From the sequence record PV682947.1: a stretch of 64,000 nt of DNA. One strand, 5' to 3'. Below, piece by piece: positions 1,020-1,470 of this stretch. This DNA is from Escherichia phage WPEC4. The notes under the pieces were generated by a model. That model ran no database searches. It was not told the DNA's origin and saw only the letters and a list, made by a program, of their open reading frames with translations. The translations under genes were made by a program, and so were the position numbers. Position 1 is the first letter of the stretch. The number at the start of each line of letters is the position of its first letter.

Positions 1020-1470
1020 TCAGTTTGCATCGCTAGGATTCGATCTAGGTGGGTTCCTGAAGGTCTACCAATAAGATTAAAGGTTATCTCAAATTTCCAC
1101 TACCTATTATCTCAAAAATCCCTCAAATTATTTAAACTTTTTAAGAATTTACAAAAGTGAAAGTTGAAAACCAAAATTTAAAGTTTAGGAAAATTATCTT
1201 AAAATGTTAGATACAAAACAAAACTCAAAAGTCAAGGAAAATTTTAAAAATTTTGCGCGCCCACAGTATTTAAAGTTTTTTTGCTTTTACAAAAATGAAA
1301 GTACAAAAGCAAAATTTAAAGTTTACAAAAATTTATGCAGGTGGGAATGAGAAGAGTTCTCATGTGGAAATGCAAATGAGAATGATTCGCATTTAAGTTT
1401 ATAAATGAGATTGATTCTTATTCAATAAGGTAAATGATAATCATTCTCATTTAGAGAATGACGCGCAGGG
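1020..1470. repeat. AT-rich noncoding repeat region (candidate replication origin/regulatory hub)
   Basis: Two ~46-bp direct repeats (~1148-1195, ~1285-1335); cluster of ATGAGA/TCTCAT-type hexamers 1340-1460 incl. Fur-box-like GATAATCATTCTC; TTTCCAC DnaA-box-like motifs. Confidence 0.4.

Follow-up and report, generated by a model that had tools for sequence, protein, structure and literature searches.

A conserved non-coding locus of Escherichia phage WPEC4 with predicted Fur-family boxes, a possible host-Fur-bound control region

Introduction

What does a long stretch of DNA without genes do in the genome of a virulent phage? The question is raised by a gap in the sequence of Escherichia phage WPEC4 (PV682947.1), of which one stretch of 64,000 nucleotides (“the window”) was analyzed here. 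This myophage of E. coli belongs to Phapecoctavirus (phAPEC8-like, Stephanstirmvirinae); its relatives include 146 phage records that match bases 1-4000 of the window at 90-96% identity, and the gap itself is 100% identical to that of phage WPEC1. The first-pass annotation, made from the sequence of the window, described a 450-bp AT-rich gap (1020-1470) as a candidate replication origin or regulatory hub. The tract is AT-rich, with a guanine-plus-cytosine (G+C) content of 0.23 across 1100-1340 compared to 0.39 in the whole window, but its extent was understated. Judged by sequence and comparison, it makes up the left half of a longer control locus of 805 bp (906-1710), conserved and non-coding, which lies between convergent genes. 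The term “regulatory hub” is supported by what this locus contains, namely a conserved non-coding module with two predicted sigma-70 promoters, a covarying hairpin, operator-type palindromes, and AT-rich repeats. We propose, with slightly more confidence than doubt, that the locus is a hub bound by the host regulator Fur.

Fur-type palindromes

Four 21-bp palindromes with the consensus AAATGAGAATSATTCTCATTT start at positions 1345, 1374, 1403, and 1432, at a spacing of exactly 29 bp. The ATGAGA/TCTCAT hexamers that had been noted in this region are present, but they are the half-sites of these palindromes rather than independent hexamers. In a scan of the window with a palindrome matrix from related phages, the four sites scored 20.9-33.5 bits and the next best site in 64 kb scored 13.9 bits; the matrix scan gave no second Fur-box cluster in the window of the kind found in Justusliebigvirus BME3 (see below). 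Among relatives, the number of palindromes varies from 1 to 5, and palindrome 4 (at 1432) is kept in all 21 of those aligned. The 29-bp spacing recurs across Phapecoctavirus, Certrevirus, Klebsiella phage phi1_175008, rV5, and Yersinia phage phiR2-01.

Four independent comparisons, given below, identify the palindromes as Fur-family boxes, that is, as predicted operators. Such boxes are well known from the iron regulons of bacteria, and GAGAAT half-sites occur naturally in them, as in the box of the aerobactin gene iucA; palindromes 1-3 fit this GAGAAT variant. At palindrome 4, the sequence GTAAATGATAATCATTCTC (1430-1448) matches 16 of the 19 positions of the Fur 19-mer GATAATGATAATCATTATC (consensus from PMC3788343) and is the only site in the window with three or fewer mismatches to it (0.03 expected), which upholds the Fur-box-like match reported by the first-pass annotation. 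The same palindrome matches the 7-1-7 Fur motif TGATAATnATTATCA at 13 of 14 positions. The resemblance also holds in the opposite direction. Sixty palindromes of related phages were combined into a matrix, which was run over 25 kb of E. coli K-12 containing the enterobactin genes; the top eight matches all fell in the fepA-fes, fepD-entS, and fepB-entC intergenic regions. When 45 kb more of the K-12 sequence was scanned, the fhuA promoter ranked second. As a separate observation, the sequence AATTGAGAATCATTCTGAATT in the map-tff/rpsB intergenic region of E. coli K-12 (NC_000913.3, ~189,580; position 44581 of L029) outscores the fhuA Fur box with the phage matrix.

The strict GAGAAT palindrome AATGAGAATNATTCTCATT was found in at least 120 bacterial contigs. 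Ten open reading frames (ORFs) adjoining it were sampled from the first loci among the matches listed, leaving out ORFs judged spurious by eye, and all 10 belong to metal-, envelope-, or oxidative-stress-related Pfam families. They encode a TonB-dependent receptor, a FUR-family regulator, two ECF (FecI-type) sigma factors, two ZnuA-type proteins, a ZIP transporter, an SBP_bac_6 solute-binding protein, a peroxiredoxin (AhpC), and a porin. Among viral contigs of IMG/VR, the motif occurs in at least 120 stretches, compared to 19 for a control palindrome of the same composition (at least 6-fold enrichment). A common palindrome consensus is found in Stephanstirmvirinae, Vequintavirinae (rV5, CR8, phiTE, and PVP-SE1), and T5-like Demerecviridae, all with enterobacterial hosts, and its presence in phage lineages that share little else favors a host factor as the binding partner.

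Architecture of the locus

The order of the module, as read from the alignment of 21 distinct relatives, is P2, block B, GTAAA repeat, P1, hairpin A, Fur boxes, and AT-rich repeats on the minus strand (Table 1), and the module is common to Stephanstirmvirinae and Vequintavirinae. The gap carries no annotated gene in relatives; in two records its sole annotation is a “repeat_region” that spans the palindromes. Coding content was considered and rejected: the gap holds short ORFs only, without a ribosome-binding site, and a 113-amino-acid ORF (1478-1819) was ruled out by frame-breaking indels among relatives. Searches of 850-2200 against Rfam, at gathering and permissive thresholds, gave nothing beyond chance.

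Table 1. Features of the non-coding locus and its flanking genes in the 64,000-nucleotide window.
Feature	Position	Strand	Basis or remark
Fur-type palindrome 1, GAATGAGAAGAGTTCTCATGT (degenerate)	1345-1365		20.9 bits; 12/19 to Fur 19-mer
Fur-type palindrome 2, AAATGAGAATGATTCGCATTT	1374-1394		32.1 bits; one mismatch to AATGAGAATNATTCTCATT
Fur-type palindrome 3, AAATGAGATTGATTCTTATTC (degenerate)	1403-1423		25.0 bits
Fur-type palindrome 4, AAATGATAATCATTCTCATTT	1432-1452		Best Fur box here; copy present in every relative
Promoter P2 (predicted), TTGACA-17-TATACT	1680-1708	-	11/12 to sigma-70; promoter scan
Block B, near-invariant ~95-nt element directly downstream of P2	1580-1672	-	Alignments of relatives
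Direct repeat GTAAAGAAATGTAAA, exact CpxR-type GTAAA-N5-GTAAA	1556-1570	-	Sole match in window; 0.22 expected
Promoter P1 (predicted), TTGCTT (1541-1536), 16-nt spacer, TATTCT (1519-1514)	1514-1541	-	Alignment of relatives
Hairpin A, stem-loop at 5' end of predicted P1 transcript	1458-1507	-	RNAalifold, 9 pairs
AT-rich long direct repeat, copy 1, 72 nt	1124-1195		G+C 0.21-0.25
AT-rich long direct repeat, copy 2, 72 nt	1262-1333		82% identical to copy 1
NADAR-domain gene	363-905	+	Left neighbor of gap
87-amino-acid gene, ends at P2	1711-1974	-	Annotated coding sequence in relatives; phrog_19316 (family without functional annotation)

In both predicted promoters the hexamers are conserved: those of P2 are kept in all relatives aligned and the spacer varies, and those of P1 are likewise conserved across relatives with a spacer free to vary (TTGCAA-17-TATATT in Certrevirus). 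The GTAAA repeat matches the CpxR consensus (GTAAA-N5-6-GTAAA; PMC9600279), and its TTTAC cores are invariant in 21 of the 21 aligned relatives. Its distance to the P1 -35 hexamer differs between the subfamilies by an indel of 10-11 nt, that is, one helical turn, and the helical phase of the two elements would thus be preserved.

Hairpin A is supported by compensatory changes in two of its pairs. In the alignment, 96% of the cells are paired, compared to 30-55% when the partners are slid, and the covariation score was reached by 5 of 500 shuffles. G-U pairs are frequent when it is read on the minus strand; read on the plus strand, they would become A-C mismatches, which is consistent with a minus-strand RNA. 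Block B hardly varies among relatives that range from Phapecoctavirus to Certrevirus and Seunavirus, and a 121-kb IMG/VR contig has it as well. Indels among relatives rule out a coding function, and no Rfam family matched it. RNAalifold predicted a two-hairpin consensus fold with one covarying pair (AU:9, GC:7), and the folding z-score was -1.76 on the minus strand versus -0.78 on the plus strand. In the contig L025, only P2 and block B are kept, beside unrelated sequence, so that block B forms a module of its own. It is a candidate for a novel phage small RNA or a transcript leader. Two purine-rich GGA/Shine-Dalgarno-like stretches were also seen in block B by eye, and either a CsrA-type or an anti-Shine-Dalgarno reading could be given to them.

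A Fur-controlled promoter on the plus strand, at the last box, was considered as well. The arrangement TTGAAT-18-CAGAAT surrounds the last box in CR8, PVP-SE1, phiTE, rV5, and the contig L018 (TAGAAT), and such a promoter is plausible in several relatives, but in WPEC4 the -35 hexamer is not kept (GTAAAT); we retain it as an alternative. In a further variation among relatives, rV5 (L011, rV5_ev156, 1500-1790) has two tandem copies of a unit made up of palindrome, hairpin, and promoter, and it lacks block B.

The AT-rich side of the locus carries the long direct repeats, which account for ~210 bp of DNA at 23% G+C. The first-pass annotation had recognized two repeats of ~46 bp (1148-1195 and 1285-1335); the repeats exist, but these coordinates fall within the longer, 72-nt copies. 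Sub-repeats of 33 nt start at 1164, 1212, and 1302. An equivalent pair of long repeats is found in phiWec181 (79% identical overall, with a spacing of 139 nt), and Justusliebigvirus has three ~70-nt copies of the long repeat. In every genus compared, two to three long AT-rich repeats lie beside the palindromes with a period of 63-139 nt, and their sequences differ between genera. Tandem Repeats Finder reported no array because the repeats are dispersed. These repeats could be the unwinding element of a transcription-primed origin, sites for some protein, or bent DNA. A short direct repeat (TTATCTCAAATTTCC / TTATCTCAAAAATCC, 23 nt apart) was also noted at 1084-1121, between the NADAR gene and the 72-nt repeats.

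Beyond the 87-amino-acid gene lies a long row of small plus-strand early genes. P1 and hairpin A share the promoter and 5' hairpin design of these neighboring genes, but without an ORF. In the early genes themselves (2083-4200), each gene has its own near-consensus sigma-70 promoter, followed after ~10 nt by a GC hairpin (GGGCGG...CCGCTC) and then by a ribosome-binding site.

Proposed role of Fur

In the proposed Fur-bound hub, P2 and then P1 would fire leftward (minus strand) as tandem sigma-70 promoters. In an iron-replete host, Fe2+-Fur dimers would occupy the four boxes; one Fur footprint is ~29 bp, and at the matching spacing of the boxes Fur would coat ~110 bp continuously. This coat would couple the locus to the iron status of the host. 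Bound Fur may block or permit leftward P1/P2 transcription into the AT-rich repeats, and/or the array may hold Fur on the many replicating copies of the phage genome.

Several observations weigh against this proposal. Compared to the classical 19-mer of E. coli, palindromes 1-3 agree at no more than 12-13 of 19 positions, a level that is ordinary for this AT-rich window, and four discrete boxes 29 bp apart are not the usual Fur layout of overlapping hexamers. Some of the bacterial neighbors are of a zinc type (ZnuA and ZIP), and the motif thus identifies the Fur family, not Fur itself. P1 is weak in this phage, with a match of 8/12, which is why the promoter scan did not list it. Moreover, the boxes lie ~+55 to +160 downstream of the predicted P1 start and not over the -35/-10 region, so that classical Fur repression is not the obvious geometry, and no downstream gene or product is evident in the locus for iron control to act on.

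Replication origin as an alternative

A different role for the same architecture would be that of a replication origin. Transcripts from P2/P1 would enter the 23% G+C tract and open or prime it, and the 72-nt repeats and/or the palindromes would act as initiator-binding iterons; such an origin is compatible with Fur binding. It is unlikely in our judgment, yet the origin is a live rival, with the architecture as its sole positive evidence: the gap is conserved and non-coding, its promoters are aimed at the AT-rich tract, and every relative has two to three long repeats beside the palindromes. In addition, the origins of rV5-like phages are unmapped, and nothing was found in the literature on an rV5 origin.

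The particular signals on which an origin had first been suggested fared less well. The TTTCCAC motifs resembling DnaA boxes do not hold up, as there is no TTWTNCACA in 1020-1470 and one of the two motifs is not conserved (the motif TGTGGAAAT at 1362-1370 reads TATGGAAAT in phage tuntematon). In the larger gap (906-1710) there is no TTWTNCACA box either, and the window as a whole has 8, compared to 9.6 expected. The cumulative GC skew, examined over the 64 of ~150 kb covered by the window, shows no turn at 1-2 kb; its turns are at ~22 kb and ~58 kb, where gene orientation changes, and it follows that orientation only. In the rV5 paper, the only skew changes were tied to transcription direction. 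As for “iterons next to an AT-rich tract”, the AT-rich tract does have repeats on both of its sides, but the supposed iterons are Fur-family boxes. No initiator-like gene adjoins the locus, whose neighbors encode a NADAR-domain protein and proteins without an assigned function.

The distribution of the palindromes also speaks against an origin. Fur-type boxes occur in the terminal repeats of T5 and BME3 and upstream of terminase genes (see below), their number varies from 1 to 5 among relatives, and the origins of T5 were mapped near the genome center, as cited in the Davison preprint.

Palindromes in T5-like phages, terminal repeats, and terminase regions

To our knowledge, the host partner of the T5 injection-stop signal has been an open question since the 1980s. 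In the T5-like phage VEc33, blastn aligned 55 nt to the phage array at 85% identity, over the palindromes only. Blastn matches in T5-like phages in general cover only the palindromes; P1, hairpin A, block B, and P2 have no match there. The palindrome motif of VEc33 is located beside DnaA boxes, within 67-nt direct repeats, and by their length and position we equate these repeats with the two 66-bp DRE repeats of T5. The calculated shear point of first-step transfer in T5 is in DRE2; the region, which is inside the 10-kb terminal repeat, also comprises nine DRD repeats and a pair of DnaA boxes located within the inverted repeats IRD'/IRC' (Davison preprint). The proposal made in that preprint for the T5 injection stop invokes DnaA, and its text does not mention Fur.

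Physical termini were taken from the literature and from record ends, which gave one usable case, the 342-bp terminal repeat of Justusliebigvirus BME3 as determined with PhageTerm. Two boxes fall within this repeat, and a second pair is located 1.2 kb inward. The BME3 terminal region gave no alignment with the window. The main array of BME3 is ~12 kb (~8% of the genome) from the annotated terminal repeat, with only small early genes between them. In three related contigs, additional boxes of lower strength were seen at a distance of 7.5-10.5 kb from the main array. The Fur-type palindromes within or just beyond the 342-bp repeat are at 52, 247, 1158, and 1216 in the BME3 record (L012) and at 582 and 777 in L151. 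In IMG/VR, the same palindrome (19-21 bp) is found 100-250 nt upstream of terminase small-subunit genes in L035, L043, L049, L069, L087, L108, and other contigs. The viral contigs concerned are unrelated, and the terminase small subunits beside the motif fall into at least three PHROG families, one of which is lambda Nu1-like (assigned by eye). In several IMG/VR contigs the palindrome is within 30 nt of the contig end.

These distributions bear on the remaining alternatives. Operators for a regulator encoded by the phage, such as the adjacent 87-amino-acid protein, would explain the palindromes with a mere resemblance to Fur boxes. A small conserved gene does abut the locus, and evenly spaced arrays of dyad-symmetric sites are typical of phage operators. 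However, T5-like phages share the palindromes, yet no homologue of the 87-amino-acid protein was found in them, and the structure predicted for the protein (a confident all-helical model) had no meaningful PDB match and matched no DNA-binding fold; together these two results make a phage-encoded operator protein unlikely. The identical motif also flanks metal-uptake genes in bacteria, and the phage-derived matrix retrieves E. coli Fur operators. We regard this explanation as improbable.

Quite improbable, too, is a T5-like pause or stop site for DNA entry, at which a host protein on the array would halt transfer after a terminal block of early genes. It would fit the position of the palindromes inside the 67-nt repeats of a T5-like phage, with the shear point placed in DRE2, as well as the ~12-kb segment of small early genes that separates the main array of BME3 from its terminal repeat and the weaker boxes of the three related contigs. 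However, no report of two-step transfer for these phages was found in the literature, the 64-kb window has neither a second array nor the paired DnaA boxes of T5, and the boxes inside the terminal repeat of BME3 misfit a simple stop model. Finally, it is very unlikely that the palindromes act as RNA, in the form of AU-rich hairpins or weak bidirectional terminators in the P1 transcript: compared to shuffled sequence, the predicted folding of the array region is much more stable (z = -7.5 for the minus strand, -4.2 for the plus strand) and one palindrome was flagged as terminator-like, but such stability is expected of any palindrome array, the stems are AU-rich with a 1-nt center, and what is conserved is a sequence matching a protein-binding consensus rather than pairing with free sequence.

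A broader proposal joins the host-Fur reading to the distribution of the boxes, and we consider it improbable as a whole. Arrays of high-affinity Fur boxes may be a device common to large virulent enterobacterial phages (T5-like, rV5-like, and phAPEC8-like), placed at the boundaries of the first-expressed segments. Bound Fe-Fur would complete the T5 stop signal as its missing partner or, in the myophages, would pause genome entry or insulate in an equivalent way; entry, or the progression from early to middle expression, would then be iron-dependent.

Implications

The locus is a predicted array of Fur-type operators that forms part of a conserved control module in a virulent phage. In the literature searched, no description was found of a conserved Fur-box array in a gene-less control region of strictly lytic phages, and nothing was found on Fur and T5. 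The sequence link between the array and the T5 injection-stop repeats was unexpected, and it makes an old question testable. If Fur binds, iron-dependent control of infection by therapeutic-type coliphages could be tested cheaply and concretely, the T5 injection-stop (iss) problem would gain a candidate host factor, and the small-RNA candidate in block B would have a defined promoter as a starting point. Even without Fur binding, no non-coding element of this phage group is better conserved than this locus, which would then be a reasonable region in which to look for the as yet unmapped origin.

Elsewhere in the window, positions 12280-13700 are a mosaic of duplicated and scrambled 70-80-nt pieces, repeated two to four times in shuffled order. 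Long stretches of this arrangement are found only in WPEC1, WPEC2, and WPEC6 (155-161 kb compared to the usual ~150 kb), and in other phapecoctaviruses the pieces adjoin SprT-like and TelA-like genes. The mosaic may be either an assembly artefact or a rearrangement hot spot.

Comparison with known systems

The elements of the locus resemble several well-studied systems in part. With CpxR-activated promoters it shares an exact consensus repeat just upstream of the P1 -35 hexamer, with cores that are invariant across relatives. This likeness is one of sequence only, and the TTTACA direct repeat could just as well be the target of an OmpR-type protein or of a phage factor.

The palindromes have the dyad consensus of E. 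coli Fur operators such as fhuA, fepA-fes, and fepB-entC, in both its 7-1-7 form (TGATAATnATTATCA) and its 19-mer form (GATAATGATAATCATTATC). Unlike those operators, the phage has four separate, near-perfect 21-bp palindromes with a 29-bp period in place of overlapping hexamers, and its boxes, in a virulent phage, occupy a tract without genes that follows a promoter.

The primary origin of T7, with the promoters phi1.1A/B, and oriF/oriG of T4 are transcription-activated origins, and the order of tandem promoters followed by an AT-rich tract is similar here. The origin of lambda (ori-lambda) likewise has four dyad-symmetric repeats beside AT-rich DNA. In contrast to the T7, T4, and lambda origins, no initiator gene encloses or adjoins the repeats of this phage, and its dyads match the box of a host regulator.

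Compared to Repeat Region 3 of T5, which holds the injection-stop signal, the window has no paired DnaA boxes, DRD repeats, or 10-kb terminal repeat. On the other hand, both regions are large, untranslated, and rich in repeats, both border the earliest-expressed genes, and the 67-nt repeats of VEc33, which we equate with the DRE repeats of T5, carry the same palindrome motif as the locus described here.
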